In this document: piece after piece, positions 8,936-39,956 of the stretch | How positions within the stretch are numbered: the stretch's first letter is position 1 | Layout of the letters: every line of letters starts with the position of its first letter | NCBI GenBank assembly: GCA_045638445.1 | Contig: JAZUBJ010000106.1 | Location: forward strand, 1-40,045 | Source: Bacilli bacterium | GTDB lineage: Bacteria; Bacillota_I; Bacilli_A; RF39; UBA660 | Direction: 5' to 3' | Length of the DNA stretch: 40,045 nt | The notes under the pieces: model-generated | Told to the model about the DNA's origin: nothing | What the model saw: the letters and a program-made list of their open reading frames with translations, nothing else | The model's database searches: none | Translations under genes and position numbers: made by a program

Positions 8936-8960
8936 TATAAATAGAAAGGATGATTGATTG

Positions 8961-10208: not shown

Positions 10209-10209
10209 T

Positions 10210-11655: not shown

Positions 11656-11659
11656 TAAA

Positions 11660-25650: not shown

Positions 25651-26917
25651 ATTGACATCTCCGAAACAAGATGAATTTATTAGGAATGCAACACATAGAT
25701 ACAATATAAAAGTAGGAGCTAGAAGATGTGGTAAAACCTATTTAGACAACTTATGGACTATACCAACACGAATATTAGAACGAAGTGGTAAAGATGGGTT
25801 GTATGTTATTCTAGGCGTATCTAAAGGCACGATAGAGCGAAATGTATTACAACCTTTAAGGCAGATTTATGGAAAGAATTTAGTTGGTACAATTAATTCA
25901 AACAACATAGCTAAGTTATTTAACGAAGAAGTTTATTGTCTTGGTGCTGAAAAAATAAGCCAAGTTTCTAAAATTCAGGGTACATCAATTAAATATTGTT
26001 ATGGTGATGAGGTTGCCAAGTGGAATCAGGAAGTATTTATTATGGTTCAAGGATCGTTAGATAAGCCTTATTCTATGTTTGATGGAGCATTAAACCCGGA
26101 AAATCAATCACATTGGTTGAAAAAAGATTTTCTTGATAAAGTTGAAGAAAAAGGGCTTGATGTTTACGTTCAACATTACACGATATTTGACAATCCTTTT
26201 TTAAGTAAAGAATTTGTTGATAACTTATGTAAAGAATACGAAGGAACAGTATTTTATGATAGATTGATACTTGGACTATGGAAAAATGCAGAAGGTATTA
26301 TATATAAACAATTTGCAGACAATCCAAGCGAATATATAAAAGAAAAAGCAATTGATGAACGTGGCAACCCAATTAACTTTATGATTATATCAATTGGGAT
26401 AGACTATGGAGCAACGCAAGGTGAAACTGAATTTAAAGCAACAGGAATAACACCTTATTTTAAACAAGTTTGGACTTTAGACGAGGAAAAGTTGAGTGGC
26501 TTACATTCACCAGAGCAAATGTATGAAAAGTTTGTAGAGTTTTATAGACGAGTTGTTGATAATTATGGTAAAGTTACCCATGCTTTCGGCGATTATGGTG
26601 CATTAGGTCAAGTTATTACTTATGGTTTAAATAGACACTTACAACAAAAAGGAATACCTTTACAAGTTCAGGATTGTATCAAGGGTAGAATCGTTGACAG
26701 AATCGAGTTAGATTGCCATTTATTTGGGCAAATGCGTAGGTTTATACTTCGCAAGTGTAAATACCTTATAGAAGCATATTCTCAGGCTCTGTGGGATGAT
26801 AAAAAGGAAGATGAAAGACTTGACGATGGAACAACACCGATAGATGATTTGGACGCATCGGAATATTCAATGTTTCCATTTTACGATAAACTTATGATGA
26901 ATATACAAGGGAGGTAG
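25628..26917 (+). CDS. terL: Terminase large subunit
   Basis: Walker A GARRCGKT and Walker B-like CYGDEVAKW, about 425 aa, upstream of the portal. The likely true start is the ATG at 25643. Confidence 0.85.
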   Translation: MMVLTMGKLTSPKQDEFIRNATHRYNIKVGARRCGKTYLDNLWTIPTRILERSGKDGLYVILGVSKGTIERNVLQPLRQIYGKNLVGTINSNNIAKLFNEEVYCLGAEKISQVSKIQGTSIKYCYGDEVAKWNQEVFIMVQGSLDKPYSMFDGALNPENQSHWLKKDFLDKVEEKGLDVYVQHYTIFDNPFLSKEFVDNLCKEYEGTVFYDRLILGLWKNAEGIIYKQFADNPSEYIKEKAIDERGNPINFMIISIGIDYGATQGETEFKATGITPYFKQVWTLDEEKLSGLHSPEQMYEKFVEFYRRVVDNYGKVTHAFGDYGALGQVITYGLNRHLQQKGIPLQVQDCIKGRIVDRIELDCHLFGQMRRFILRKCKYLIEAYSQALWDDKKEDERLDDGTTPIDDLDASEYSMFPFYDKLMMNIQGR

Positions 26918-27128: not shown

Positions 27129-28559
27129 ATGAAATTAGAAAAGTTTTTACAAGATAATTATAATTACAACCCAGATGTTAAAAATGTATTAGCAAGTTAT
27201 ATTGACCAATGGAAGAGTTGGTATCAGGGGAATGTAAAATCATTCCACAATTATTTTATTTACAATGGTAAAAAGAAAGTGCCACAACAAAGATATACAA
27301 TGAACATGGCAAAGGAAATTAGCGAAGATTGGTCAGATATTTTATGGAGTGAAAAATGCCAAGTATCAATGGCAGATGAAACTTCACAAGAACAATTTGA
27401 TGAGTTAGTAGAAGCACTAGATTTATATGTGTTAATTAACCAATCAATAGAAAAATCAGGTGGTTTAGGAACTGAATCAGCCGTAGTGAGTGTATATGAT
27501 ATTATTGAAAATGAAGAAGGAATGACTTTGGATGTATCAAGTGCTAAAACCAGAGTTGATTTGGTAGATGTTGACTGGATATTCCCATTAAGCTGGACTA
27601 ACAAGGGCATAACTGAATGTGCGTTTGGTAGCGTTGAATATATTAAAGGTAAAAAACATATAGTATTATCAGTTCATCAATTAAATGATGCAGGAAATTA
27701 TGTTATTAAAAATCATTTATTTATGGAAACAAATGGAAATTTAACTGAAATTGTAAATCGTGATAATACAATAAATGAATTTGATACAAAATCAGATATT
27801 AAATGGTTTGCAATATTTAAGCCATTATTAACAAATAATTTATTTAATAATTCACCTTTTGGGATTCCACATTATGCAAATGCGATTGATAACTTAAAAG
27901 CAGTTGATATTTCATTTGATGCTTTAAAGAACGAAGTAAATGATGGCAGAAAAAGAACGTTTGTTAGAGCGGAATTGTTTAATTATGATGAAGGGCAACA
28001 AAAATTGGTATTTGATCCAAACGATACAACAGTTTATCAATTGCCACAAGGTGCGACTAAAGATGATTTGATTCAGAGTGAAAGTGATAGTTTAAGAACT
28101 GCGCAACAAATTGAAACATTGAACACTAACTTAAATATTTTAGGAAGTAAAGTTGGATTTGGTGAAAATCATTATCATTATGACGGAACTAATTTATCAA
28201 CTGCAACTGCTGTTGTAAGTTCAAATAGTAAGTTATTCAGAAGAAAGAAAAAACTTGAAATTGGGTACGAAAGTGCTATTTATGATTTGGTAAAGGCTGT
28301 TTGCTATGCTTCAAGTGAGTTCGGTCAATATAACATAAATACAGATGACATGGTTGTTCAATTTGACGATAGTATAATCGAAGATAAAGAAGCAGAAAGC
28401 AATAGAGCTATGAGAGAAGTAAGCGCAGGATTATTGAGCAAGGTTGATTATAGAGTTCAAGTGTTTGGCGAAACACCAGAAATAGCACAACAAAAAATTG
28501 CTGAAATAGAAGAAAACAATCCAACAGTGCAAGATTTATTGGGAACAAATAACGAATAG
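27129..28559 (+). CDS. Portal protein
   Basis: 476 aa, immediately downstream of the terminase. Size and position are typical of SPP1/A118-type portals. Confidence 0.8.
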   Translation: MKLEKFLQDNYNYNPDVKNVLASYIDQWKSWYQGNVKSFHNYFIYNGKKKVPQQRYTMNMAKEISEDWSDILWSEKCQVSMADETSQEQFDELVEALDLYVLINQSIEKSGGLGTESAVVSVYDIIENEEGMTLDVSSAKTRVDLVDVDWIFPLSWTNKGITECAFGSVEYIKGKKHIVLSVHQLNDAGNYVIKNHLFMETNGNLTEIVNRDNTINEFDTKSDIKWFAIFKPLLTNNLFNNSPFGIPHYANAIDNLKAVDISFDALKNEVNDGRKRTFVRAELFNYDEGQQKLVFDPNDTTVYQLPQGATKDDLIQSESDSLRTAQQIETLNTNLNILGSKVGFGENHYHYDGTNLSTATAVVSSNSKLFRRKKKLEIGYESAIYDLVKAVCYASSEFGQYNINTDDMVVQFDDSIIEDKEAESNRAMREVSAGLLSKVDYRVQVFGETPEIAQQKIAEIEENNPTVQDLLGTNNE

Positions 28560-28573: not shown

Positions 28574-29806
28574 GTGTTAGACGAAAGACTAATTGATTTA
28601 TTAGTAGAACGCCTTGTAGATAGAATAGAACAAGGCAACACTTATGTATTAGAACAAATAGGCAAGAATATCAAGAAAGTTGGTACTCTTACGCCTAGTA
28701 AGGCACAACAACTTGTAAATGTTCTTAAATATGGTGGTAATTATGATAATATTGTTAAAAAACTTGCGAAGGTTACCGACTTAAATGTCGCCGACATCTA
28801 TGAAATATTTGAAGAAGTTGCTAAGAATGATTATCAATTTGCTAAGCAGTTTTATGATTACAAAGGTGTTAAATACATTCCTTATGAAGAAAATTTTGCT
28901 TTACAAAGACAAGTTCAAGCGTTGGCAAGAATAACTGCAAATGAGTATGTTAATCTTAGTAATACACTTGCTTTCACAACACGAGATAAGTTCGGTAAGG
29001 TTGTTTATACTGACCTTTCTAGAACGTATCAAGATGTTATTGATAAGGCTGTTTTAAGCGTAGCACAAGGCAAAACTACATTTGATGAAGAAATGTATAA
29101 GAGTATCAAAGAACTTGCTTCTAGTGGCATAAAAACGGTTGATTATGCAAGTGGTAGAGCAGTTAGATTAGATTCAAGTGTTAGACAACATATGAAAGGT
29201 GCATTGAGAAACTTACACAATGAAACACAAGCAGTATTCGGTGAAGAATTTGGCTCTGATGGCGTAGAGATTAGTGTTCATATTAATCCAGCACCTGACC
29301 ACGCCGAAGTTCAAGGTAAACAATTTAGTAAAGAAGAATTTGTGAAGTTTCAAAATGACGATGATGCTTATGATTATAAAGGTAAGTTCTTTCCAGCAGT
29401 ATCAGAAGAAACTGGACACGATAGACGTTCTATAAGCGAACATAACTGTTATCATTACACTTTTGATATTGTGTTGGGTGTTAGTAAGCCAAATTATAGT
29501 AATGAAGAATTACAAAAGATAATTGATGATAATAACAAAGGTTTTGAATTAGATGGGAAGCACTATACTAATTATGAAGGCACTCAATTACAAAGAAAGC
29601 TAGAAACTGAAATTAGAAGGCAAAAAGATATTCAGATTATGGCGAAAGCAAGTGATAACAAAGAATTAGTGCAAGAAAGCCAACAAAAGATAACACAACT
29701 AACAAAGAAATATAAACAATTGAGTGACATTAGTGGTTTACCAACTAAAATGGAACGAATGCGTGTTAGTGGTTATCGCCGAGTTAATGTTGCAAAAATG
29801 AAATAG
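28574..29806 (+). CDS. Minor head protein (SPP1 gp7 / Mu F-like)
   Basis: 410 aa directly after the portal, GTG start with GGTAGGTGA RBS. Confidence 0.65.
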   Translation: MLDERLIDLLVERLVDRIEQGNTYVLEQIGKNIKKVGTLTPSKAQQLVNVLKYGGNYDNIVKKLAKVTDLNVADIYEIFEEVAKNDYQFAKQFYDYKGVKYIPYEENFALQRQVQALARITANEYVNLSNTLAFTTRDKFGKVVYTDLSRTYQDVIDKAVLSVAQGKTTFDEEMYKSIKELASSGIKTVDYASGRAVRLDSSVRQHMKGALRNLHNETQAVFGEEFGSDGVEISVHINPAPDHAEVQGKQFSKEEFVKFQNDDDAYDYKGKFFPAVSEETGHDRRSISEHNCYHYTFDIVLGVSKPNYSNEELQKIIDDNNKGFELDGKHYTNYEGTQLQRKLETEIRRQKDIQIMAKASDNKELVQESQQKITQLTKKYKQLSDISGLPTKMERMRVSGYRRVNVAKMK

Positions 29807-29808
29807 GT

Positions 29809-29818
29809 GTGGTATAAT
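29809..29818 (+). promoter_or_regulatory. GTGGTATAAT motif copy 5 (extended -10 promoter)
   Basis: Exact 10-mer 3 nt after the minor head protein stop codon. Confidence 0.45.
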
Positions 29819-29824
29819 TTAATT

Positions 29825-29974
29825 GTCACAGAGTAACTAGTTGTGGGCAAGAGTTAAATATAAAGTTGGCATTTTATAGAGTTCCCACTGTCAGACAGCC
29901 AGTCAAGTCATTATTAACGTGATATGATAAAGTCGAATGTGATATTTAGAAAAGAGAAATCTTTTCTTTTTTTT
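29825..29974 (+). ncRNA. Candidate small non-coding RNA (about 150 nt) bounded by a promoter and a terminator
   Basis: No ORF with an RBS. It is locally more GC-rich than its surroundings (gtggg...cccac, cagacagccagtc) and sits between TGgTATAAT and a hairpin plus T7. Confidence 0.3.
29948..29974 (+). terminator. Rho-independent terminator
   Basis: agaaaag-agaaat-cttttct hairpin followed by T7. The stem is AT-rich, so it is only moderately strong. Confidence 0.5.
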
Positions 29975-29975
29975 G

Positions 29976-30005
29976 TTGACAAATTGTATAAATGTTGTGT
30001 ATAAT
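29976..30005 (+). promoter_or_regulatory. Sigma-A type promoter (TTGACA-18-TATAAT)
   Basis: Consensus hexamers immediately after the terminator, driving the RHH operon. Confidence 0.6.
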
Positions 30006-30025
30006 ATGTGTAGTGAGGTGATAAA

Positions 30026-30160
30026 ATGGTAAAAGTTAGAAAAAATATAAGTATTGATGAAACAATATGGAAGAAACTTCAAGAACTTGCAAAGAAAGAA
30101 AACAGAAGTGCAAGTAATTTTATAGAATATTTAATAGAAAAATGGGAAAAGGGTGAATAG
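30026..30160 (+). CDS. Ribbon-helix-helix protein (44 aa)
   Basis: Not in the track. RBS GTGAGGTGA. ISIDETIWKKLQELAKKENRSASNFIEYLI fits the RHH pattern. Confidence 0.6.
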   Translation: MVKVRKNISIDETIWKKLQELAKKENRSASNFIEYLIEKWEKGE

Positions 30161-30161
30161 A

Positions 30162-30407
30162 ATGACAAGATTAGAACAAAGAAAGAATAGTGTTGAGAAA
30201 ACATTGAAAGATTTTAAAATACCTTATGAAACAATGTACGATAGAAGATATTTTAAAATAACATATCAAGGGCATAAGTTGTTATTAGAAGTAACAAATA
30301 GATATATTGATATTAGAAATAGAAAAGACACAATGAGTTATGGTTTTTTTGAAGGAGTAACTGATTTTAGATATTCTATTGAAAATGGTTATAGTTTAAT
30401 AGATTAA
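30162..30407 (+). CDS. Hypothetical protein (81 aa) coupled to the RHH gene
   Basis: The ATG at 30162 lies 1 nt after the RHH stop codon. The track models a GTG start at 30153. Confidence 0.5.
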   Translation: MTRLEQRKNSVEKTLKDFKIPYETMYDRRYFKITYQGHKLLLEVTNRYIDIRNRKDTMSYGFFEGVTDFRYSIENGYSLID

Positions 30408-30426
30408 AAGAAAGCGGTGAGTAATA

Positions 30427-30861
30427 ATGGAATTAAAAGAAGGAATGTATGTAAGAACTAAAAGAGGATTAATTGCCAAATATATAGGGTTTGAAAAAGA
30501 TGAAGAAGAAAATGAATATAGCAAGTATAATTTTAATGGAAAAATATATTGGTATTATGAATATTACAATGATTATGTTTATGAAGAAGATTTTGAAGAA
30601 TGGTTTGAAGCAAGTGTTATCAAAATAAGTAATAACATAATAGACTTAATAGAAGTTGGAGATATATTAGAAATTAATAATGAAAAATATGAAGTCATTT
30701 ATGATAAAAGTTATGAAAAATTAGGAATTTTAATACCTAGTAGAGAAGAATTATCAATAAGGCATAGTGCTTTAGAATATGTTTTTAAAAAATATAAGGT
30801 ATCAATAGTAACAAAAGAACAATTTTCACAAATGGAATATAAGATAAGTTTGGAGGGGTAA
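30427..30861 (+). CDS. Hypothetical protein (144 aa), Tyr/Glu-rich
   Basis: ORF with GGTGAG RBS. No motif recognised. Confidence 0.55.
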   Translation: MELKEGMYVRTKRGLIAKYIGFEKDEEENEYSKYNFNGKIYWYYEYYNDYVYEEDFEEWFEASVIKISNNIIDLIEVGDILEINNEKYEVIYDKSYEKLGILIPSREELSIRHSALEYVFKKYKVSIVTKEQFSQMEYKISLEG

Positions 30862-30862
30862 T

Positions 30863-31027
30863 GTGGAAATAGAAGATATAATTGAACAATTAGATAGAAT
30901 AGAAAGAATGTTGTTTACTTTATTAAATGAAACAGATAAAGAAAAGTTTAAAAATGAAAAAATAGAAAAATATAAAATTCAACTTAATTTATATGAAAAA
31001 ATGTTAAAACAAGAAGAAAATAAATAG
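30863..31027 (+). CDS. Small coiled-coil protein (54 aa, GTG start)
   Basis: Not in the track. The GGAGGGG RBS lies 4 nt upstream of the GTG. Confidence 0.35.
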   Translation: MEIEDIIEQLDRIERMLFTLLNETDKEKFKNEKIEKYKIQLNLYEKMLKQEENK

Positions 31028-31062
31028 AAAGGTTTGTGAGGTTATGAAAAATAATTTAGGAG

Positions 31063-31362
31063 ATGATGATTGTGAATGAAAAAATAGGAAGATATACAGA
31101 AGATGAAATATTAGAGCATTTAACCAAAGGAGAAGGTAGAGGATTTTTAGGAAGAAGTATGTACGATGCTATCTTCGATAAAATACACGCTTTAAAAACT
31201 GAAAATGAACAGACAAAAAAAGAAAATGCACGATTAAAAGATAAAAATAAAGATTTAGAAGAATGGTTAGAAGCAATGGCAAGTATGTATGAAAATGAAT
31301 ATAAAGATGTAGATGCTTCTGAACATTATAAATGTATGTTACATAAATTAAAAGAAAACTAG
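31063..31362 (+). CDS. Hypothetical coiled-coil protein (about 97 aa)
   Basis: ORF ending at a terminator. The start is ambiguous (ATG at 31063/31066 or GTG at 31072). Confidence 0.5.
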   Translation: MMIVNEKIGRYTEDEILEHLTKGEGRGFLGRSMYDAIFDKIHALKTENEQTKKENARLKDKNKDLEEWLEAMASMYENEYKDVDASEHYKCMLHKLKEN

Positions 31363-31386
31363 CAATTTGCCTAGTTTCTTTTTTTA
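31356..31386 (+). terminator. Rho-independent terminator
   Basis: aaactag / ctagttt stem overlapping the stop codon, followed by a T run. Confidence 0.55.
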
Positions 31387-31395
31387 TGTTATAAT
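31367..31395 (+). promoter_or_regulatory. Promoter (TTGCCT-17-TGtTATAAT) embedded in the terminator, same layout as at 8907
   Basis: The -35-like TTGCCT lies inside the hairpin. The extended -10 is at 31387-31395. Confidence 0.5.
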
Positions 31396-31436
31396 TTGGC
31401 TAGTAGTAAATGAGTGTCGTGCGGGGAGAATAAAAA

Positions 31437-31745
31437 ATGCTAGAGAAAATCGTATTAAGTGCTATTGGTGTAATAGTAACAAGTGTAGTAACGGGGCTTA
31501 TTGGTTATTTTAAAGGAAAAATGCAAGGTTATAAAAGTAGAGATAGTAGGCAAGAAGAAGCTCTTAAATGTCTTTTAAGAAGTAATATAACAAGCAAATA
31601 TTATGTTTATAGCGAATTAAAAGAGATACCATATTATGAAAAAGAAAATATTGACCGCATGTTTGAACAATATAAAAACATGGGTGGGAACTCTTATGTA
31701 GATACTATTGTTAGAGAAATAAACCAATTACCAACGAAAAAGTAG
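31437..31745 (+). CDS. N-terminally membrane-anchored protein (102 aa), monocistronic
   Basis: TM segment IVLSAIGVIVTSVVTGLIGYF followed by a soluble domain. It has its own promoter and terminator. Confidence 0.6.
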   Translation: MLEKIVLSAIGVIVTSVVTGLIGYFKGKMQGYKSRDSRQEEALKCLLRSNITSKYYVYSELKEIPYYEKENIDRMFEQYKNMGGNSYVDTIVREINQLPTKK

Positions 31746-31767
31746 TATTTATGTACTATTTTTTTAT
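31741..31767 (+). terminator. Weak rho-independent terminator
   Basis: agtagta / tactatt stem (one G-U pair) plus a T run. Confidence 0.4.
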
Positions 31768-31773
31768 TTTTAA

Positions 31774-31801
31774 TTGACTTTTGAGAAAATTTATATATAA
31801 T
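31774..31801 (+). promoter_or_regulatory. Sigma-A type promoter (TTGACT-16-TATAAT)
   Basis: Near-consensus hexamers upstream of the membrane protein leader. Confidence 0.55.
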
Positions 31802-31815
31802 AATAAGACAAAAGA

Positions 31816-31855
31816 AAAAAGGGAGTCCTAAGATGACTTCTTTTTTGTTTTTTTT
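31816..31855 (+). promoter_or_regulatory. Leader terminator/attenuator hairpin between the promoter and the membrane protein gene
   Basis: 12-bp stem (aaaaagggagtc / gacttctttttt, two G-U pairs) with a 7-nt loop, followed by G and T8. It lies downstream of the promoter and upstream of the start codon. Confidence 0.5.
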
Positions 31856-31880
31856 AGAGGGAGGTGAGAAAGGTGTTTAA
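31833..31880 (+). CDS. Leader mini-ORF (15 aa, MTSFLFFLEGGEKGV)
   Basis: GGGAG RBS 7 nt upstream. The ORF runs through the 3' arm and T run of the leader hairpin and overlaps the start of the main gene. Confidence 0.3.
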   Translation: MTSFLFFLEGGEKGV

Positions 31881-33066
31881 AGATTATAACAAGTATTTAA
31901 GTGCAAGTTTAAAAGTGTATATTTTTGTATTAGTAATAGTGTTTATAATGAAGTTGGTGGGGTTAGATTATTTTGGATTAGATGTAAACAATTCGATTTT
32001 TACCAAAGTTTTTACATTTTTAGCTAAATATAAAATCGATTATGTTTTACAAATATTATGTTTATATTTAAATTTTTATTTGTTAAAGAGCATAATATTT
32101 AAAGATTGCAAATTTGATTTTGAAACAATATTAATTCCAACGATAATTAACATTGGTACATACTTTTTACTTAAATATGACTTACAAGAGTTATATTCGA
32201 TGTTTAATATTTTAGTGTTGTTTTTATATTTTGTTATCAAAAAAGTTAAAATTAAAAGAATTTTAAAGGTTTTTATTATTAATATTGTCCTTCAATTTAT
32301 TAGTAGTGTTATTAGAAACTATGATATCAATAACTATATAACTTTGATTAATTTAATGATGAATATAGATTATTATATAATGCTAATTATTTGGTATAAA
32401 TTAGAAAAACAAGGAGGTGTTAAAAAATGGGAGAATGGCCAGGAAGTTTATTCTTATTCGCTAAAGAAGATAAACTTGGGGAAATTGCTGAAAAGATTGC
32501 AAGAAAACTTGCATAAATTTAAGCAAAAACAAAAAGTTGAAAAATTAACAATTATTATTTATTTGTTTTTAAGTTTGATATGGAATACATTTACAGTAAT
32601 TTTTGTTCTTTTTGTAGCATCATTAAATGACACATTTATTGAATGTATATTCATAATAACTTCATTCTGGTTATCCAAAAGAGCATTTGGTAAGGCATTT
32701 CATCTATCTAGTATGATCCAATGTTTTATTGTTTCAAATATTAGTTATTATATACTAAATAGAATTACAACACCTTTAGGAATTAGTATATTAATTCCAA
32801 TAATGTTAGGAGTAGGTTTATCGTATGTTACATCAAAATTGGTGAAGAAAACATACAAGCCACTTTATAAAGGTATGTCAAAGGAACTATTTGAAGAAAC
32901 AATATTAAAGGTTGTGGACAAAGATAGCCAGAAGTATAAGATATGTTACGACTTTTATATTAATAAGAAAAGTGATTTATCACTATCTTTGAAATATAAT
33001 TATTCAGTCGCAGGTATTAGAAAAATTAAGGATAGAATAAATGATAAAATTAAAAGACTTGATTAA
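31864..33066 (+). CDS. Polytopic membrane protein (about 400 aa) with an AgrB-like His/Cys motif in its C-terminal half
   Basis: About 10 hydrophobic segments. WLSKRAFGKAFHLSSMIQCFIVS reproduces the R-x6-H-x6-C-x3-S spacing of AgrB (S. aureus RRHAHGAHAPSSFWCYVES). The probable start is the GTG at 31873. Confidence 0.45.
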   Translation: MRKVFKDYNKYLSASLKVYIFVLVIVFIMKLVGLDYFGLDVNNSIFTKVFTFLAKYKIDYVLQILCLYLNFYLLKSIIFKDCKFDFETILIPTIINIGTYFLLKYDLQELYSMFNILVLFLYFVIKKVKIKRILKVFIINIVLQFISSVIRNYDINNYITLINLMMNIDYYIMLIIWYKLEKQGGVKKWENGQEVYSYSLKKINLGKLLKRLQENLHKFKQKQKVEKLTIIIYLFLSLIWNTFTVIFVLFVASLNDTFIECIFIITSFWLSKRAFGKAFHLSSMIQCFIVSNISYYILNRITTPLGISILIPIMLGVGLSYVTSKLVKKTYKPLYKGMSKELFEETILKVVDKDSQKYKICYDFYINKKSDLSLSLKYNYSVAGIRKIKDRINDKIKRLD

Positions 33067-33079
33067 AGTCTTTTTTTTT
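33052..33079 (+). terminator. Rho-independent terminator
   Basis: aaaagact / agtctttt 8-bp stem with the stop codon in the loop, followed by a T run. Confidence 0.65.
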
Positions 33080-33122
33080 GTATTATTTTGTATCGTTTTT
33101 AAAATCTATAATTAAGTTAGAA

Positions 33123-33171
33123 AGGAGATGCAAACAATGAAAAATAAAACCCTGCTGATGTTTGCTCTCCT
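33123..33171 (+). promoter_or_regulatory. RBS-sequestering hairpin in the leader of the 33198 operon
   Basis: 13 bp with one bulge: aggagatgcaaaca pairs with tgtttgctctcct. The left arm contains the AGGAG of the mini-ORF. Confidence 0.4.
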
Positions 33172-33184
33172 TTTGTTTATTTAA
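33137..33184 (+). CDS. Mini-ORF (15 aa, MKNKTLLMFALLLFI)
   Basis: AGGAGA RBS 9 nt upstream. Its stop codon overlaps the RBS of the next gene. Confidence 0.3.
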   Translation: MKNKTLLMFALLLFI

Positions 33185-33197
33185 GGAGATGAAATAA

Positions 33198-33635
33198 ATG
33201 TATAATAACCCATATTATAACCCAAATCAAAGGTATCAACCGATGGGAATGCCAAGTCAACCCATGACAACACAACCTAGTTATATAACACCAATAACAC
33301 CGCCTATAAGTCAACCAAATTTATTAGGTAAGGTAGTGGATAGTATTGATGTAGTAAAAGCTATGGACATTCCTTTAGATGGCAGTATAAGTTATTTCCC
33401 ACTAACAGATGGAACTGCAATTGTTAGTAAGCAGTTACAAACAGACGGAACTAGTAAAACTGTTATTTACAAACCAATAAAAGAAGATACTAACGATAAT
33501 AACAAATTCGTGACTTTTGAAGATATGCAAAAAGAACTTGCAAAAATAGATTTATCTGATTTAGATGATTTGAAAGATGAATTAAAGGAAATTAAAAAGC
33601 AATTGAAAACAATAAAAAAACCGAAGGAGGATTAA
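33198..33635 (+). CDS. Protein with a P/Q/N/Y-rich low-complexity N-terminus (145 aa)
   Basis: MYNNPYYNPNQRYQPMGMPSQPMTTQPSYITPITPPISQP, then a globular part and a charged coiled-coil tail. Confidence 0.6.
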   Translation: MYNNPYYNPNQRYQPMGMPSQPMTTQPSYITPITPPISQPNLLGKVVDSIDVVKAMDIPLDGSISYFPLTDGTAIVSKQLQTDGTSKTVIYKPIKEDTNDNNKFVTFEDMQKELAKIDLSDLDDLKDELKEIKKQLKTIKKPKED

Positions 33636-33636
33636 A

Positions 33637-33876
33637 ATGAATAATCCGTTGCAAATGATTAAAATGATGATGAGCAACACCAAAAATCCACAAGAAATAG
33701 CTATGAATATGATAGGTAATAATAATAATCCAGTTATACAAAACCTCGTCAAAATGGCTCAAAATGGTGACTATAAAGGTGTAGAAAATGTTGCTAGAAA
33801 TATGTTTAAAGAACAAGGTAGAGATTTTGATGCAGAATTGAAAGATTTACAAAGTTTTATAGGTAATTTTAAATAA
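33637..33876 (+). CDS. Small Met/Asn-rich helical protein (79 aa)
   Basis: Coupled ORF (TAAAATG junction). No motif recognised. Confidence 0.6.
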   Translation: MNNPLQMIKMMMSNTKNPQEIAMNMIGNNNNPVIQNLVKMAQNGDYKGVENVARNMFKEQGRDFDAELKDLQSFIGNFK

Positions 33877-33882
33877 GAATAA

Positions 33883-33927
33883 AAAGTCCGGTTATAAGTG
33901 TAAAACGTCCGGACAGAACCGGACTTT
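33883..33927 (+). promoter_or_regulatory. GC-rich three-element hairpin with mutually exclusive pairings
   Basis: aaagtccggtt (A) and aaccggacttt (C) form a perfect 11-bp stem. The loop contains the palindrome gtccggac (B), which can pair with either A or C. Confidence 0.5.
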
Positions 33928-33951
33928 CTATTATAAATTAAAAAAGGAGGA

Positions 33952-34827
33952 ATGAAAATGGAAGGAATGTTAAGCCCTGCTGATGTAGCTGTCCTATCTG
34001 GAAATGCTGGTGGAAATAGACAAGGTGGACAAGGTGGTTTCGGAGACGGATATGGTGCATGGTGGATCATCATCTTAATAGTATTATTAGGATGGGGTAG
34101 AAACGGCTTCGGTGGAAACCAAGGAGGAAACTCTGATGGTGGACAAGGAGCAACATATTACTATGGAGGAGGTTTTGGTATGCCAAATATCTATGGTAAG
34201 TTAGACGGAATTAGTTATGGTATAGCAGATTCTACTTTCGCTTTAAACAATTCAATTACAAATGGATTTGCTGGTGTTCAACAAACATTATGTCAAGGAT
34301 TTAGTGGTGTAAATAATGCTATAACAGTTAATGGCTATGAAACAAGAAGTGCTGTTACTGATTTAGGTTACAGACTACAAGATTGTTGCTGTCAAACACA
34401 AAGAGCAATTGATAAATGTTGCTGTGATACTTTAAGAAGTATTGACAATGTAAGATTTGAAAACGCTCAAAATACTTGTGCTTTAACAAATGTTATAAAT
34501 AGCACTACAAGAGATATTTTAGAAAGCAATAACAATAATACAAGGGCAATTTTAGATTTCTTAACTAAAGATAAAATTGATACTTTACAAGCAGAAAATC
34601 AAGCTCTTAGATTCCAAGCTTCACAAACTGCTCAAAATGCTTTCATTACTGCTAACCAAGACGCTCAAACTGCTGAGTTAATCAGAAGATTAGGAGCAGA
34701 TTGCCCACAACCTGCTTACCTTGTAAATGGACCTACACCAATTAGTTTCCCAACTAATGGATGTGGACAAGTTCAGTTTTCAAACAATGGTTGCGGATGC
34801 GGATGCAATAATGGATATAATTTTTAA
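33952..34827 (+). CDS. Gly-rich, membrane-anchored, Cys-rich protein with CCC repeats (291 aa)
   Basis: Gly/Gln/Asn-rich N-terminus flanking the TM segment AWWIIILIVLLGW. Tandem DCCCQTQRAID / KCCCDTLRSID, a Gln-rich coiled coil, and C-terminal GCGCGCNNGYNF. 13 Cys in total. Confidence 0.7.
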   Translation: MKMEGMLSPADVAVLSGNAGGNRQGGQGGFGDGYGAWWIIILIVLLGWGRNGFGGNQGGNSDGGQGATYYYGGGFGMPNIYGKLDGISYGIADSTFALNNSITNGFAGVQQTLCQGFSGVNNAITVNGYETRSAVTDLGYRLQDCCCQTQRAIDKCCCDTLRSIDNVRFENAQNTCALTNVINSTTRDILESNNNNTRAILDFLTKDKIDTLQAENQALRFQASQTAQNAFITANQDAQTAELIRRLGADCPQPAYLVNGPTPISFPTNGCGQVQFSNNGCGCGCNNGYNF

Positions 34828-34880
34828 TAAGTGAGATGTCTAACTGACAACCCTGATAACAGGGACTTGCTAATTTAACG

Positions 34881-34914
34881 GAGGTATAGCAAGTCTATAC
34901 CTCTTTATTTATTT
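34881..34914 (+). terminator. Rho-independent terminator
   Basis: gaggtata / tatacctc 8-bp stem with a 7-nt loop and a T-rich tail. A second small hairpin ccctg-ataa-caggg lies at 34851-34864. Confidence 0.65.
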
Positions 34915-34934
34915 AAGAAAGGAATGATAATTAA

Positions 34935-35393
34935 ATGATTCAAAGTGTATTAGAACAATTTACAATTCTTACTAGTAATACATCTGCTATTAATTTTACT
35001 CAAGATGATGTAAGAAGTAGAAAAGCTAATTGTTGCGGATGGTTACAACATAACGAAGGTTCACCAATTTATAAAATATTAGAAGGTGGATTATATGAAG
35101 TTTCTTTTAATGCCAATGTTTCAAGTGCTACTGCTGGAGTAGTTGCTTTAGGTTTATACCAAGATGGTGTGTTAATACCCGGAACAACTGTTATAACTAC
35201 AATAGCAACTGCTGGTGATTTTATGAATGTATCTTTTGATAAATTAATACAAGTATGTTGTAGAGGAGATGCTAATTTAACTATAGCATCAGTACCTAGT
35301 GTTTTAACAGGAACAACTGCACCGGGAACTCCAACAGATACAGAAATTCCTATAATTCAAAATGCTAACTTCTCAATAATTAAGAAATCGTAG
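34935..35393 (+). CDS. C1q/TNF-like (BclA C-terminal domain-like) beta-sandwich protein with two vicinal Cys pairs
   Basis: 152 aa. The pattern GGLYEVSFNANVSSATAGVVALGLYQDGVLIPGT ... NLTIASV ... NANFSIIK resembles BclA-C/C1q jelly-roll domains. Confidence 0.45.
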   Translation: MIQSVLEQFTILTSNTSAINFTQDDVRSRKANCCGWLQHNEGSPIYKILEGGLYEVSFNANVSSATAGVVALGLYQDGVLIPGTTVITTIATAGDFMNVSFDKLIQVCCRGDANLTIASVPSVLTGTTAPGTPTDTEIPIIQNANFSIIKKS

Positions 35394-35402
35394 GTGTGAA
35401 TT

Positions 35403-35960
35403 ATGGAAGAAGAAAAAAAAGATAAGGAAATATTAGAAAAGTTAAAAGAAGAAACTGACAAATCTATGAAACGTGTTTTGGAACAAGGAGTACAAACAAA
35501 CAATGTTGATTTTCTTTATAAAATGATAGATATAAAGAAAGATATAGCAGAAATTGAAAAGGAGGAAGAAGATATGATGTATAGAGCAGGAGGTTCATAC
35601 AGAGAAGGTGGTTCAGGTCGTGGCTCTTATGGTGAATACGGAGAAGGTTCTTACGGAAGAAGAGGAGTACCCGGAAGTGGTAGAGGAAGATACAGCGAAG
35701 GCGGTTCTTATGGACGTAGAGGTGTAAAAGGAACTGGTAGAGGTCGTTATCGTGGAGAAGAAATGATGGACGAAATGGCTTATCACTATGGAAATTACTC
35801 TGAAAGTGGACAATATGGAGCTGAAGGAGAATCAATGGAAGCTCTAAGCAACTTAATGGAAAGTGCATACGAGTATTTTAAGGAATTAAAAGAAAATGCT
35901 AATTCACCAGAAGAAATTAAAATGATGGAACACTATTTTAAAAAAATGGGCGAAATGTAA
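35403..35960 (+). CDS. RGG/GSY-repeat protein flanked by acidic helical domains (185 aa)
   Basis: The central region GGSYREGGSGRGSYGEYGEGSYGRRGVPGSGRGRYSEGGSYGRRGVKGTGRGRYRGEE includes a 19-aa tandem duplication. Confidence 0.6.
   Translation: MEEEKKDKEILEKLKEETDKSMKRVLEQGVQTNNVDFLYKMIDIKKDIAEIEKEEEDMMYRAGGSYREGGSGRGSYGEYGEGSYGRRGVPGSGRGRYSEGGSYGRRGVKGTGRGRYRGEEMMDEMAYHYGNYSESGQYGAEGESMEALSNLMESAYEYFKELKENANSPEEIKMMEHYFKKMGEM
35646..35759 (+). repeat. 2 x 57-nt in-frame tandem repeat encoding GSYGRRGV(P/K)G(S/T)GRGRY...
   Basis: Units at 35646-35702 and 35703-35759. The Arg codons differ between units (AGA vs CGT), so the repeat is conserved mainly at the protein level. Confidence 0.8.
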
Positions 35961-36316
35961 TGTATAAATTCTATAATGCAAATGCTCGTGGTAAATTCCA
36001 CAATGATTGCACAGTCAGGGCAATTTCACTAGCCGAAGGTAAATCGTGGGATGATACTTATAGAGAATTAAGCATAATAGCACAACGTAATGGAATAATA
36101 CTTGACGATGTTAATTTTATCGAGCCATTATTAGATAGTAGGTATGATAGAATATGCTATAAAGGAAAATATGTGGGCGAGTTCGCAGAAGAACACCCAG
36201 AGGGAACGTACCTTATAACGATGAACGGGCATATTACTTGTTGTATTGATGGGACGATATACGATACATTTGATTGTAGAAACAGAGAAATGTGGTGTGC
36301 TTGGGAGGTTTATTAA
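35960..36316 (+). CDS. Small Cys-His protein, possible papain-fold peptidase/amidase (118 aa)
   Basis: An N-terminal NDCTVRAISLA (candidate nucleophile Cys) and a C-terminal NGHITCCIDGTIYDTFD (candidate His/Asp) have the order and spacing of small papain-like enzymes. Confidence 0.35.
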   Translation: MYKFYNANARGKFHNDCTVRAISLAEGKSWDDTYRELSIIAQRNGIILDDVNFIEPLLDSRYDRICYKGKYVGEFAEEHPEGTYLITMNGHITCCIDGTIYDTFDCRNREMWCAWEVY

Positions 36317-36327
36317 CCTCTCTTAAC

Positions 36328-36402
36328 GGGAGTATAGCCAAGTGGATAAGGCAAGTGACTGCAACTCACTTATCGTAGGTTCAAATCCTATTACTCCCTC
36401 CA
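36328..36402 (+). tRNA. tRNA-Cys(GCA): tRNA-Cys (anticodon GCA) with encoded CCA
   Basis: Manual cloverleaf: 7-bp acceptor gggagta/tactccc, D loop with GG, anticodon stem agtga/tcact with loop CTGCAAC, and T arm gtagg-TTCAAAT-cctat. The U73 discriminator is the CysRS identity element, and a 3' CCA is encoded. Confidence 0.85.
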
Positions 36403-36455
36403 ATTTTGATTTTTATAAAATATATGATATAATTTTCTAAGAGAGGATTGATTAT

Positions 36456-36779
36456 ATGAAGAATTATAAAGTTACTGCAATAATAAATTTCACATATACT
36501 GCTTTTGATGAAGTTGTATTTATAGAAAAAGAAAAATATAATTACCATTGGATCTATAAAGGTGATGTTTTCTTATGTGATAAAGACCAATATGAATATT
36601 TAAGTGGAAATAATAAAAAGAAATTAGTTACGATTAAATTAGATGGAATATTGGTTGAAGAAGAACAACAAGAAGTTGTAATTGACCAATCAAATGAAAT
36701 TGATGTAGAAATAAATAAAGAAGATTTAGAAGTTAAACCTAAAAAGAAAAGAGCAACTAAAAAATCAAGCAAGGAATAA
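36456..36779 (+). CDS. Hypothetical protein with a Lys-rich tail (107 aa)
   Basis: ORF with GAGAGGA RBS, flanked by the tRNA and the tRNA-like element. Confidence 0.55.
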   Translation: MKNYKVTAIINFTYTAFDEVVFIEKEKYNYHWIYKGDVFLCDKDQYEYLSGNNKKKLVTIKLDGILVEEEQQEVVIDQSNEIDVEINKEDLEVKPKKKRATKKSSKE

Positions 36780-36792
36780 CTTGCTTTTACTT

Positions 36793-36866
36793 AGGGATAA
36801 GGCGAAAGTTGCCGACAAATCTCCAAAATTTGTGTCGAGTGGGAGCGTTACCTACTATCCCTGCCA
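36793..36866 (+). tRNA. tRNA-like cloverleaf, possibly a degenerate or non-canonical tRNA-Trp (anticodon CCA)
   Basis: 7-bp acceptor agggata/tatccct, G73 and a 3' CCA; anticodon stem caaat/atttg with loop CTCCAAA; T stem gtggg/cctac. However, the T loop is AGCGTTA rather than TTCRANN, the D loop is only 5 nt with no GG, and the spacer lengths are irregular. Confidence 0.4.
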
Positions 36867-36887
36867 TTAGTAAATAAAAAGTGCTTT

Positions 36888-36915
36888 TTGCATTTTTTTT
36901 ATTTTGTGTTATAAT
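36888..36915 (+). promoter_or_regulatory. Promoter of the scaffold/capsid operon (TTGCAT-16-TGtTATAAT)
   Basis: Good -35 and an extended -10, located 85 nt upstream of the scaffold start. Confidence 0.55.
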
Positions 36916-36923
36916 ATATTTAT

Positions 36924-36941
36924 AAAGTTCAACAGAACTTT
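36924..36941 (+). promoter_or_regulatory. Inverted repeat AAAGTTC-N4-GAACTTT just downstream of the -10 (operator or 5' UTR hairpin)
   Basis: Perfect 7-bp arms with a 4-nt spacer, starting 9 nt after TATAAT. Confidence 0.35.
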
Positions 36942-36999
36942 CAATATTGATTCACTCGAGTTCGTGGCTCGTAAAATTAACGATAGGAGGAGATATTAA

Positions 37000-37476
37000 A
37001 TGAGAGAATTTTTAAAGAGTTTAGAATTAGAAAAAGAAACTATTGATGTTATTATGAAAGAACATGGAAAAATTTTAACTGAAAACAAAGGTGAAATACA
37101 AGGTTTGAAAGATAAAATTAAAGAACATGAAGAAACAATAACAAAATTAAATGGTACTATTGAAGATAATAATAAATCTTTAGAAAGTCTACAAACACTA
37201 ACAAACGAGAATAAAGACTTAAAAGCAGAAATTCAAATGAATGGAAGCAATGTTAAAAAAGAATTTAGTAAATTTGTTAGAAGCGAAGTTATGGCAAATG
37301 TAAATGATGAAACAGATTTTACAACAGCCCTTGAAACTTACAAAAAAGATAATCCACAATACTTTGGAGATGTAGTAGTTAAAAAAGTGCAATCATCACC
37401 AAGTTTAAACGGTGGAGAACCACAACCACAAACAACAAATAATATTATGAATGATATTATTCGTGGTACAAAATAA
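37000..37476 (+). CDS. Capsid scaffolding protein (GP20-like coiled coil)
   Basis: 158 aa, highly charged coiled coil, directly upstream of the major capsid gene, with a strong AGGAGGAG RBS. Confidence 0.75.
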   Translation: MREFLKSLELEKETIDVIMKEHGKILTENKGEIQGLKDKIKEHEETITKLNGTIEDNNKSLESLQTLTNENKDLKAEIQMNGSNVKKEFSKFVRSEVMANVNDETDFTTALETYKKDNPQYFGDVVVKKVQSSPSLNGGEPQPQTTNNIMNDIIRGTK

Positions 37477-37500
37477 TTAAATAAAAGGAGAGAAGAAAAA

Positions 37501-38409
37501 ATGGCACAAATCACAAGAACTGATGTAGATGCTCTAATTGAAACTCAAGTAGCTAATGAGATATTTGAGGGAGTAACTACTGAATCAAAAGCTTTATCAA
37601 TGTTTAGAAGATTACCAAACATGACATCTGATAAAACTAAATTAAGAGTTTTAGACTCACTACCAATTGCTTATTTCGTTGATGAATCAAATAACAACGG
37701 AAGAAAAAATCTTACAAAGATGGCTTGGGCAAACAAGTACATCAATGCAGCTGAATTAGCAGTTATCGTTCCTATTAAGGAAAACGTATTAAACGATGCT
37801 TCTATTGACATCTGGGCTGAAGTTAGACCTAGAATTGTTGAAGCATTTGCTAAGAAAATCGACAACGCTGTATTCAATGGTGTTGACAAACCTGCTGATT
37901 GGAGAAAAGGTTTAATACCATCAATCGTTGAAGCTGGTAAAGAAGTTCCTGAAAGTGGAAAATTATATTCTGATATCAACGATGTTATGACTGAAGTTGA
38001 AGAAAGCGGATATAATGTTACTGCTCTATTAGGTGGAGTTGGACTTAAAGGAAAATTCCGTATGATGACTGACGAAACTGGTCAACCATTAAATACAACT
38101 GAAATTGGTTCTTTAAGAAGAGAATACCTAGACAATGGTGCTTGGGATAAAGAATTATCAACATTAATCGCTGGTGATTTCAATCAAGCAGTTTACTCTA
38201 TAAGACAAGACGTTACTTATAAAGTATTAACAGAAGCTGTTATCCAAGACCCATCAAGTGGAGAAATCTTATATAACTTAGCACAAGATGACATGGTTGC
38301 ATTACGTGTTGTTATGAGATTAGGTTGGGAAATTCCAAACCCAGTTAACGCATTAGACGAAACTGAAACAAGATTCCCATTCGCATCTTTAAAACCAACA
38401 AATGTATAA
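37501..38409 (+). CDS. Major capsid protein (HK97-fold type)
   Basis: 302 aa following the scaffold, with a strong RBS and highly expressed-looking codon usage. The position is typical. Confidence 0.85.
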   Translation: MAQITRTDVDALIETQVANEIFEGVTTESKALSMFRRLPNMTSDKTKLRVLDSLPIAYFVDESNNNGRKNLTKMAWANKYINAAELAVIVPIKENVLNDASIDIWAEVRPRIVEAFAKKIDNAVFNGVDKPADWRKGLIPSIVEAGKEVPESGKLYSDINDVMTEVEESGYNVTALLGGVGLKGKFRMMTDETGQPLNTTEIGSLRREYLDNGAWDKELSTLIAGDFNQAVYSIRQDVTYKVLTEAVIQDPSSGEILYNLAQDDMVALRVVMRLGWEIPNPVNALDETETRFPFASLKPTNV

Positions 38410-39525: not shown

Positions 39526-39956
39526 TGAATTATAATGAGGCTAGAATATCAAAGTTAAGAACTTATTTGTTTAGTATAATTGACACTCTTGCTACTGATA
39601 AGAACTATCAAATTAATGCTAATATGTTATCTAACGATATTAATAATTATTCGCTTGATAAGATACCAACATCAAGTCAAGTCGAAAGATGGGTAACAGG
39701 TTTAGAAATACATCGTGACGTATTTTCGTTTAGAAGTAGAAACGCTTACTCACAAGATGTAATCAATAATCTTTCTAATATAGGGTTCTTTGAGAAATTT
39801 GAAAGCATAATAAAATCTAATAACAAGAAAGGCGTTTTGCCTGATATTGAAGGTATAGAAAGTATTGAGTGTTTAAATTCCGGAGCGATGTTGAGTAGTG
39901 ATACTAACACCGCTGAGTTTGATATTCAAATACAAATAACATATAGAGAGGAGTAA
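39525..39956 (+). CDS. Tail completion / tail terminator-like protein
   Basis: 143 aa, the last gene before the tail tube gene once the circle is closed. Confidence 0.5.
   Translation: MNYNEARISKLRTYLFSIIDTLATDKNYQINANMLSNDINNYSLDKIPTSSQVERWVTGLEIHRDVFSFRSRNAYSQDVINNLSNIGFFEKFESIIKSNNKKGVLPDIEGIESIECLNSGAMLSSDTNTAEFDIQIQITYREE

Follow-up and report, generated by a model that had tools for sequence, protein, structure and literature searches.

In the staphylococcal and clostridial agr systems, the membrane cysteine endopeptidase AgrB turns a small propeptide into a secreted signal; its catalytic pair in S. aureus consists of H77 and C84, and agr genes are reportedly carried by the C. difficile phage phiCDHM1. 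In the exosporium nap of the B. cereus group and C. difficile, BclA, with its collagen-like stalk and C1q-like knob, stands on a cysteine-rich layer of ExsY/CotY or CdeC. The transmembrane one-component regulators ToxR, CadC, and TfoS have been reviewed in PMC10269533. Features that recall each of these systems are found together in the 7.2-kb interval (29,807 to 36,999) between the minor head and scaffold genes of a phage, whose DNA was deposited as Bacilli bacterium (assembly GCA_045638445.1, contig JAZUBJ010000106.1; the whole stretch of 40,045 nucleotides is hereafter called the window). This interval is an always-occupied cargo slot between the terminase-portal-minor head operon and the scaffold-capsid operon. 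In the window, the slot is a mosaic of a phage-private operon, two membrane proteins, and a portable six-gene cassette with a tRNA-Cys (Table 1). Our explanation, held with middling confidence, is that the slot carries the private operon, a regulator that we call AgrBL, and an autonomously regulated, cell-directed cassette for a cysteine-rich fibre; we are less sure of the location of that fibre.

An earlier note on this DNA had described the interval as a single 7.2-kb accessory island that splits an otherwise contiguous head module. Comparison with relatives speaks against this description, because the two flanks are seen adjacent in none of those retrieved (seven through the minor head protein and the others through the island proteins) and because the right 3.1 kb is a conserved cassette. 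Instead, every relative retrieved shows a long gap here that is filled. Two loci, L004 and L009, extend as far as the scaffold gene, which lies 7.2-7.6 kb from their minor head gene, and L096 and L102 have the same layout; in L003, L006, and L007, the sequence runs 4-5 kb past the minor head gene and ends short of the scaffold gene. Furthermore, the promoter and 5' untranslated region of the scaffold-capsid operon are conserved in L099, L104, L004, and L015. Given this separate conserved promoter region and the filled slots, two head operons with a slot between them appear to be ancestral in the lineage.

What fills the slot varies. The closest relative, L003, whose minor head protein is 77% identical, has in its slot (8357-10629) a 572-aa, repeat-containing, fibre-like protein and a 180-aa protein, and it has no cassette. 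In L004 (15280-17884) and L009 (16427-18515), two GT2 glycosyltransferases, a Stealth protein (CR2/CR4), and an NTP-transferase fused to a domain like F12 (the last gene of the interval) are encoded between the cassette and the scaffold gene. In L096, other small open reading frames (ORFs) stand where the window has its AgrB-like gene. These four relatives support the accessory cargo of the earlier note, in that the slot content is replaceable. Its further points, that the products are unlike capsid-assembly proteins and that the interval has transcription signals and regulators of its own, are also supported; no recognisable homology to capsid-assembly machinery was found among the interval products. 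The PADLOC defence models gave no credible match for ten interval proteins. There are 14 credible ORFs on the + strand, together with the tRNA-Cys and a decayed tRNA-Trp; many ORFs thus separate the head genes, as the earlier note had said, although not the roughly 17 that it counted. After the ribbon-helix-helix (RHH) gene, the products measure 84, 144, 54, 99, 102 (with a transmembrane helix), 400 (AgrB-like), 145, 79, 291, 152, 185, 118, and 107 aa.

The slot thus resembles phage morons and cargo hot spots, which likewise have their own promoters and terminators, deviant composition, variable content, and a location at a module boundary. It was found to have its own promoter and terminator, cargo whose presence varies among close relatives, and a GC content that is ~0.23 between 30 and 33 kb and 0.33-0.36 between 33.5 and 36.5 kb, compared with ~0.29 for the genome. 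However, the core cassette, unlike moron cargo, is conserved rather than sporadic: its gene order is maintained over thousands of phage contigs, and it has a dedicated regulator and an internal attenuator.

This cassette, F15-F16-F3-F5-F4-F6, spans 33198-36316 (~3.1 kb). In other loci, F7 and F9 correspond to F15 and F16 in diverged form, F10 is an optional 60-aa gene, and F1 is a small stand-alone helix-turn-helix (HTH) protein. A degenerate-pattern scan with F3 revealed more than 537 viral contigs, and profile searches revealed no fewer than 7994 homologues of F3 and no fewer than 7433 of F6. Synteny determined with hidden Markov models (HMMs) in ~100 loci shows a recurring order, portal-Phage_min_cap2-F6-F1-F15-(F16)-F3-(F10)-F5-F4, and a shorter recurrent form, F1-F15-F16-F3. 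Among 80 loci from the viral-contig search, the cassette follows Phage_min_cap2 in 28. Elsewhere, it lies 3' of the lysis genes (phages CPD1 of C. perfringens and Ceridwen of Butyrivibrio), between the genes for a tail fibre and a CHAP lysin (the 62-kb phage L098), 3' of a lambda-E-type capsid gene (L076), between tail genes and an integrase (L032), and 5' of the terminase (L013). These varied positions and capsid types, which we consider the weightiest argument, favour an autonomous module over a part fitted to one capsid. No functional name or Pfam domain was present among the 120 best F3 and 120 best F6 homologues, and NCBIfam yielded only HTH and sigma names for 136 cassette proteins. The cassette is thus accommodated by no known family, and its function, whether cell-directed or virion-associated, is carried here as competing readings.

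The cassette proteins look like building blocks rather than enzymes, with F6 as the possible exception. In F3, a Gly-rich N-terminus is followed by a hydrophobic core (12-14 residues) with Gly and Trp on its flanks; a helix of ~170 residues, in which Asn, Gln, Ser, and Thr are abundant, then leads to a Cys-rich tail, and the CCC and CGCGC clusters are conserved. Its AlphaFold2 (AF2) model, with a predicted local distance difference test (pLDDT) score of 52, places helices at 37-46 and 80-248; the quality is too low for a fold search, and a single long helix is what a coiled coil would be expected to give when modelled as one chain. Cysteine makes up 4.5% of F3 and 5.1% of F6 compared with 1.0% for the genome, a demand that the tRNA-Cys behind the cassette would suit. 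F6, in contrast to F3, gives a model with a pLDDT of 84, in which the Cys lies at a helix N-terminus and, with the His and Asp on the following strands, forms a papain-like geometry. The best matches of this fold in the PDB (Josephin-2, Tae4, and deubiquitinases) are weak and not significant (E >=0.3), and many uncharacterised proteins of phages with diverse hosts have this fold. When F6, F5, AgrBL, and a canonical AgrB were used as queries, sequence and profile searches of the PDB returned no match, and no AgrB structure is known with which folds could be compared. By reading of the translations, F5, F4, F15, F16, and F6 have no hydrophobic N-terminal stretch, which suggests that assembly is cytoplasmic.

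The C1q/BclA-C-like call that had been made for F5 holds in part. In the window, F5 reaches 22 bits against BclA_C (PF18573), under the Pfam cut-off of 38 bits; in a mixed alignment (A2) containing 13 F5 relatives, the domain recurs in nine proteins at E up to 0.01, the best being 5e-07. Judged from the sequences, then, the relation is one of resemblance and not of membership. The F5 family comprises 300 representative clusters, almost all of them stand-alone proteins of 130-155 aa. The cassette resembles the exosporium nap in that a BclA_C-like domain is found beside Cys-rich, low-complexity proteins and that, in relatives, glycosyltransferases are encoded nearby. It differs from the nap in the sub-threshold score, in the absence of collagen-like GXX repeats from the 152 residues of F5, in having a stand-alone knob with a separate coiled-coil protein as stalk, and in being borne by a phage rather than a mother cell. 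A broader proposal, which we advance only tentatively, is the following: the cassette would be an undescribed, widespread system that builds a cysteine-cross-linked fibre layer, similar to an exosporium nap, on the cell membrane or on particles, ruled by a new class of regulator and a translation-coupled attenuator RNA. Such a layer would have a coiled-coil stalk and a BclA/C1q-like knob, glycosylated in some phages, and its regulators would be either stand-alone sigma-region-4 proteins or a membrane fusion of an AgrB protease with an HTH, which may release or activate its DNA-binding tail upon a membrane or peptide signal.

The fusion in question is AgrBL, encoded directly 5' of the cassette. 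Its start is probably the GTG at 31873, giving 397 aa rather than 400. The earlier identification as AgrB-like has proved sound: Pfam AgrB (PF04647) matches with 35.8 bits over a cut-off of 23, aligning residues 209-318 with profile positions 5-108 of 185, and a precomputed PF04647 match is found on many AgrBL homologues. H280 and C287 (H-x6-C) are invariant in 120/120 homologues, and an hhalign comparison with the canonical 200-aa AgrB of L010 (E 1.5e-3) aligns the His, the Cys, and the YxP motif that follows. However, the complete AgrB architecture (~190 aa) is not present, given that the last ~75 profile positions are unmatched, the N-terminal half is unrelated, and an HTH has been added. 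(A duplicated AgrB domain had been considered for the N-terminal half; it was dropped for lack of any relation to AgrB.) The F1 HMM matches the last ~40 residues of every AgrBL homologue checked (hhalign E 2.7e-4). F1 in turn matches GerE and Sigma70_r4 in Pfam; in the mixed alignment A2, which contains 19 F1 members, 10 proteins match GerE and 6-7 match Sigma70_r4/r4_2. F1 and the tail of AgrBL are thus assigned to the sigma-region-4/LuxR-GerE type of HTH, and DNA binding is predicted for both. In phages, AgrBL stands directly 5' of the cassette in ten loci and F1 in ~50, and the two never occur together.

These findings define AgrBL as a putative membrane-bound transcription regulator, a variant form of AgrB on the one hand and of the transmembrane transcription factors on the other. 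It shares with AgrB the His-x6-Cys, the YxP motif, the polytopic membrane form, and, in the case of its cellular homologues, the kinase and LytTR neighbours; it differs in being twice as long, with an extra N-terminal membrane part of ~200 residues and the C-terminal HTH. Like ToxR, CadC, and TfoS, it unites DNA-binding and membrane-anchoring parts in a single chain and would act on the adjacent promoter. In contrast to those proteins, its HTH is C-terminal and of the sigma-r4/LuxR type, its anchor is polytopic with a protease-like domain, and no periplasmic sensor is evident. The His and Cys could serve in self-processing that frees the HTH tail or in the processing of a host peptide; both are possibilities.

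Chromosomal homologues, up to 62-65% identical, are flanked by a LytTR response regulator on one side and an AgrC-like kinase on the other, and loci of this kind are L010-L012, L103, L106, L109, L110, and L113. In L010-L012, a canonical agrB-agrD pair is present ~1.5 kb downstream, and in L010 spoIIR and ctpB are also near. A tblastn search with AgrBL against phage records gave no match. These neighbourhoods, one of them in a metagenome-assembled genome (MAG) with canonical agrBD beside the homologue, the above-threshold Pfam match, the invariant His-x6-Cys, and the precedent said to exist in phiCDHM1 are what might be expected if the locus were an agr-type quorum-sensing or peptide-maturation system, in which the AgrB-like protein turns a small propeptide into a secreted signal, as the earlier note had suggested. 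PMC4124054, on a C. difficile myovirus, appears to be a commentary on phiCDHM1. Nevertheless, we give this idea hardly any credence. No agrD-like ORF occurs in 31300-33300, and tblastn with the AgrD of L010 is blank across the window and finds matches in no locus searched other than L010-L012; agrC and agrA, present beside the chromosomal homologues, are absent from the window. The lack of agrD, agrC, and agrA means that classical agr signalling is not supported. In addition, the match covers ~105 of 185 profile positions, N-terminal ones only, the protein bears a DNA-binding tail, its gene sits where a plain HTH regulator sits in other phages, and a 15-codon leader ORF farther downstream has neither a Cys nor an acidic tail.

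The resemblance of F1 to GerE and of F5 to BclA_C (sub-threshold in the window) raises a further alternative, that the cassette mimics spore-coat or exosporium proteins and, being expressed when its host sporulates, alters the surface of the spore. The Cys-rich and Arg/Gly/Tyr-rich compositions would fit, some carriers are phages that infect spore-formers, C. perfringens among them, and one chromosomal AgrBL locus is, as noted, beside spoIIR and ctpB; one might even speculate that F6 is a transglutaminase-type cross-linker. We nevertheless consider this alternative very unlikely. A scan of the eleven largest tail, lysis, and replication ORFs revealed no integrase, and the credible genes of the phage all lie on one strand, so that long residence in sporulating cells is not evident. 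Furthermore, no sporulation-type promoter was recognised, GerE-type HTH domains are generic, and Butyrivibrio fibrisolvens, the host of one carrier, is not a known spore-former.

If AgrBL is a DNA-binding protein, its operator would be expected nearby. The AgrBL gene is followed by a terminator, the repeat TTGTAT-N4-TTGTAT, and a -10-like box that lacks a properly spaced -35, and this arrangement is alike in phage and chromosomal loci. Repeats of the TTGTAT type are found 3' of the AgrBL gene in most of the loci inspected (L010, L013, and L099-L113). Loci of the F1 type have other -35-like hexamers, in three to six phased copies with a period of 10-11 bp, such as TTGCCA in four copies (L004) and TGCGTT in five. 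Phased chains of at least three copies occur in 24% of the spacers between regulator and cassette but in only 2% of shuffles. A two-copy TTGTAT repeat by itself is statistically ordinary in AT-rich DNA, and the weight of that element consequently rests on its conservation across loci.

Two RNA elements follow. The first, 5' of F15, is a leader hairpin containing a 15-codon ORF, MKNKTLLMFALLLFI (33137-33184), that has a Shine-Dalgarno sequence and may be a leader peptide for attenuation. Analogous leader hairpins precede F15 or F7 in L013, L009, L007, and L006. Short hydrophobic ORFs were also seen at the position of the 15-codon ORF in L100, L102, L104, L013, and L105. The second element, between F3 and F5, may be a translation-coupled attenuator. 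Its stem P0 closes two small hairpins and includes the F3 stop codon in its 5' strand, while its 3' strand, ACUUGCUA, is complementary to the apical loop of the terminator that follows. The predicted duplex between ACUUGCUA and the terminator apex has an energy of -6 to -15 kcal/mol in 16/16 loci versus about -3 in shuffles, and the complementarity is kept despite sequence changes, for example in L014. The motif was seen in 16 loci, and a covariance model finds it in these 15-16 loci only. In an alignment that was fitted to the model and that consists of related sequences, 17 doubly changed cells were counted versus 7.4+/-2.3 in shuffles (0/500 reach 17), and slid registers collapse. A search of Rfam over 29000-37500 at E up to 1 gave the tRNA-Cys as its sole match, leaving the attenuator and leaders unmatched. 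As in the trp and erm leader attenuators, one strand would pair with either an upstream partner or the terminator, and a ribosome footprint could decide between them. Unlike those leaders, the sensing ribosome is predicted to terminate on full-length F3 rather than on a leader peptide.

The anatomy, conservation, synteny, mobility, domain assignments, and RNA covariation are shown by these observations; they can be combined in a model in which DNA binding by AgrBL, attenuation, assembly, and location are inferred. The perfect sigma-A promoter at the left would drive an early-type operon for the Arc-like RHH protein and four orphan ORFs, and the two membrane proteins, F11 and AgrBL, would each be expressed under their own promoter and terminator. 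AgrBL would substitute for F1, the small HTH protein that most other phages encode ahead of the cassette; the HTH of AgrBL, either free or tethered to the membrane, would bind the TTGTAT repeats just 3' of its own gene and control a cassette promoter without a correctly spaced -35 box. The transcript would then meet a first checkpoint in the leader hairpin/terminator that encloses the 15-codon ORF and a second one after F3. There, a ribosome that stops at the end of F3 would release the ACUUGCUA strand for pairing with the terminator apex, allowing read-through into F5-F4-F6. The products would be non-enzymatic building blocks, namely a hydrophobically anchored coiled-coil rod of ~170 residues that carries Cys clusters, three proteins of low complexity, and one resembling BclA_C/C1q, accompanied by F6 as a small papain-like protein with Cys, His, and Asp. 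Most likely, they assemble into a cysteine-rich fibrous structure at the membrane of the infected cell. The cassette would thus be an accessory, autonomous module that is not obligatory for the assembly of this capsid.

Several points weigh against this model. The poor F3 model, the low score of F5, the ordinary statistics of the two-copy repeat, and the makeup of the alignment behind the covariation have been given above. In addition, most loci have the cassette within structural operons and in the late orientation, as virion components would be, and the glycosyltransferases and Stealth protein beside it in relatives would also fit virion or surface glycoproteins. Carriage at this position by close relatives throughout, which the earlier note would have taken, together with stoichiometric capsid components in virion mass spectrometry, to indicate an expanded structural module, is in our judgement found for the core cassette, while the left arm is phage-specific. 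The chief competing explanation, which we regard as possible although doubtful, is that the cassette proteins belong to the virion, as head or neck fibres, as decoration composed of the F3 rod and the F5 knob, or as internal or ejection proteins. In the last case, they would travel with the minor head protein, which is like SPP1 gp7, and insert into the host membrane at infection; membrane-penetrating ejection proteins typically have hydrophobic segments. Besides the co-orientation with structural genes and the 28/80 loci in which the cassette follows Phage_min_cap2, this explanation would account for the fibre-like 572-aa protein and the 180-aa protein in the slot of L003, for the GT2 and Stealth genes that adjoin the cassette in L004, for the tRNA-Cys, which suggests high expression, and for weak tblastn matches of F3 to crAss-like genes annotated as "outer capsid protein/viral fiber". 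However, it does not readily explain why the cassette accompanies unrelated capsid types and occurs at non-structural sites, next to an integrase, lysis genes, or a terminase. Nor do structural genes often need a regulator, operator repeats, and attenuators of their own, and no match to any solved virion protein was obtained. A search of the literature on phage AgrB, BclA-like phage proteins, AgrB-HTH fusions, and the virion proteomics of C. perfringens carriers found nothing relevant.

Whichever location applies, the cassette comprises six families, each with thousands of members, that occur in fixed order in gut and rumen phage contigs and that, aside from the sub-threshold BclA_C in the F5 family, have no assignment in Pfam, PDB, NCBIfam, or PADLOC. 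Solving one cassette would thus bring annotation to a large part of phage dark matter. In the AgrB-like/HTH fusion, a protease fold whose only known role is the maturation of autoinducer peptides is tied to the direct control of transcription. Because phages share the fusion with chromosomal operons of the LytTR/AgrC type in uncultured Bacillota, it could uncover a new route of signalling and a means by which phages tap it. The attenuator and the phased -35-like repeats are concrete regulatory elements that can be tested.

Table 1. Positions of the slot, its flanking genes, and its predicted signals in the window
Feature	Position	Strand	Remarks
TerL	25628-26917	+	
SPP1-type portal	27129-28559	+	
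Minor head protein Phage_min_cap2, left flank	28574-29806	+	Pfam PF06152, E 2.2e-60
Promoter-like site with TG-extended -10, left border	29790-29818	+	10/12 match plus TG
A/U-rich hairpin and U-run, weak terminator	29947-29975	+	-8 kcal/mol, z -1.4
Perfect sigma-A consensus promoter, left-arm operon	29976-30005	+	TTGACA-18-TATAAT, 12/12
Ribbon-helix-helix protein (Arc/CopG-like), 44 aa	30026-30160	+	Pfam RHH_5/RHH_1; PHROG Arc-like repressor
Four orphan ORFs (84, 144, 54, 99 aa)	30153-31362	+	The 99-aa product is a coiled coil
Terminator hairpin	31341-31389	+	-13.4 kcal/mol, z -4.6; overlapped by promoter-like site 31367-31395
F11, 102 aa, N-terminal transmembrane helix	31437-31745	+	phrog_4105, PHROG E 8e-21
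Terminator 3' of F11	31740-31768	+	Hairpin z -3.75, U-run
Promoter, then leader hairpin and U-run, 5' of AgrBL gene	31774-31856	+	TTGACT-16-TATAAT, 11/12
AgrBL, polytopic membrane protein	31864-33066	+	AgrB-like domain ~205-335; C-terminal HTH ~360-400
Intrinsic terminator overlapping AgrBL stop codon	33054-33079	+	7-bp stem; seven-T run ending 33079
Putative operator/promoter of cassette	33078-33112	+	TTGTAT direct repeats 33078-83 and 33088-93; -10-like TATAAT 33107-12
Leader hairpin AAAGGAG...CUCCUUU and U-run	33120-33174	+	55 nt, -20.7 kcal/mol, z -4.9
F15, 145 aa	33198-33635	+	Pro/Gln/Tyr-rich N-terminus, small conserved domain, coiled-coil tail; phrog_21718; conserved synteny
F16, 79 aa	33637-33876	+	Helical, Met/Asn/Gln-rich; synteny in 51 loci
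F3, 291 aa	33952-34827	+	phrog_16490, PHROG E 2e-53
Candidate attenuator RNA between F3 and F5	34826-34914	+	Three-way junction, then terminator (34880-34914)
F5, 152 aa, stand-alone BclA_C-like (C1q/TNF-type)	34935-35393	+	phrog_20016
F4, 185 aa	35403-35960	+	Helical ends around Arg/Gly/Tyr-rich disordered centre; phrog_28802; alignment A5
F6, 118 aa	35960-36316	+	phrog_3754; Cys17, His91, Asp102 invariant
tRNA-Cys(GCA)	36328-36402	+	ARAGORN and Rfam
F12, 107 aa, Lys-rich tail	36456-36779	+	Homologues in L004, L009, L102
Decayed tRNA-Trp(CCA)-derived element	36792-36868	+	Cloverleaf-like fold; aligns with tRNA-Trp of L102 and L013
Hairpin/U-run, then TG-extended -10 promoter of scaffold-capsid operon	36876-36915	+	Promoter 36887-36915
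Scaffold protein Phage_scaffold, right flank	37000-37476	+	Pfam PF06810
HK97-type capsid protein	37501-38409	+	

The transcription signals of the interval stand out by quality rather than by number. Promoter-like sites overall are at the level of chance in this AT-rich DNA (91 versus 84+/-10 expected); however, sites that match TTGACA-N16-18-TATAAT in at least 11 of 12 positions number five genome-wide versus 1.9+/-1.3 in shuffles, and two of the five are intergenic in the interval, at 29976 and 31774. A scan for terminators found 8 versus 3.2+/-2 expected. The promoters that the earlier note had listed at 29976 and 31774 stand, and sites were likewise found at the left border and at 31367-31395; its hairpin/U-run terminators form the proposed folds, only weakly so at 29947, and a TG-extended -10 is indeed present at both borders. 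The promoter 5' of the AgrBL gene occupies 31774-31801, and the terminator-like site after it (31816-31846, with the hairpin reaching 31856) has an energy no better than shuffles. The only other perfect site in the genome, TTGACA-16-TATAAT, is located in the replication region (15677-15704); it is of the same class as the left-arm promoter and is probably an early promoter.

In the left arm, the RHH gene is the sole one with a homologue in ~115 fetched loci. For the four orphan ORFs, neither a homologue in those loci nor a Pfam, PHROG, or PADLOC family was found beyond coiled-coil noise. A paralogue of the RHH gene, with 32% identity over 34 aa, is present at 13057-13206, directly upstream of the replication module. 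After the TG-extended -10 of the left border, ~130 nt of non-coding sequence lead to the weak terminator (29819-29975), and a small transcript could arise there; the idea that the spacer 29819-29946 encodes a structured small RNA was dropped (z -0.6, not conserved). F11 adjoins the cassette in 16 loci. F3 and F11 were also considered as phage holins, a possibility that was dropped because a canonical Holin_LLH is present elsewhere in the genome and F11 is unrelated to it.

The window has an exact 141-nt terminal overlap (1-141 = 39905-40045), indicating that the assembly is circular and comprises the complete genome of the phage, ~39.9 kb, with a GC content of ~29% and all credible genes on the + strand. 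Its other modules include tail genes, a lysis pair of the canonical Holin_LLH and an M23 peptidase/lysin (11350-12493), a replication module (AAA_24, DnaB), a C5 methylase, TerL, and head-tail connectors beyond the capsid gene. Megablast of 25.6-40 kb against 50,697 phage records gave no match; the MAGs into which the nearest relatives were binned bear the names Bacilli bacterium, Candidatus Scatovivens, Erysipelotrichaceae, and Mollicutes.

At the right end of the slot, the tRNA and the tRNA-like element of the earlier note were both recovered. The tRNA-Cys(GCA) lies directly downstream of the cassette in six phages (the window, L013, L015, L096, L099, and L112). In L078 and L045, a tRNA-Gly or tRNA-Met takes its place. 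The position of F12 just 5' of the scaffold gene is kept in relatives, and the copy in L009 is the one fused to the NTP-transferase. The tRNA-Trp-derived element retains a CUCCAAA anticodon loop, the acceptor stem, and a CCA-like end; an intact tRNA-Trp is found in L102, at the same position, and in L013. ARAGORN and Rfam made no call at 36792-36868, and a functional tRNA there was dropped as a candidate because the D and T arms are degenerate. Finally, stretches of 43-50 nt that are ~83% identical to the promoter region of the scaffold operon occur in L096 (6740-6782) and L097 (5945-5994), where they overlap the 5' end of the gene immediately following the minor head gene; such stretches could be a recombination substrate at the borders of the slot.

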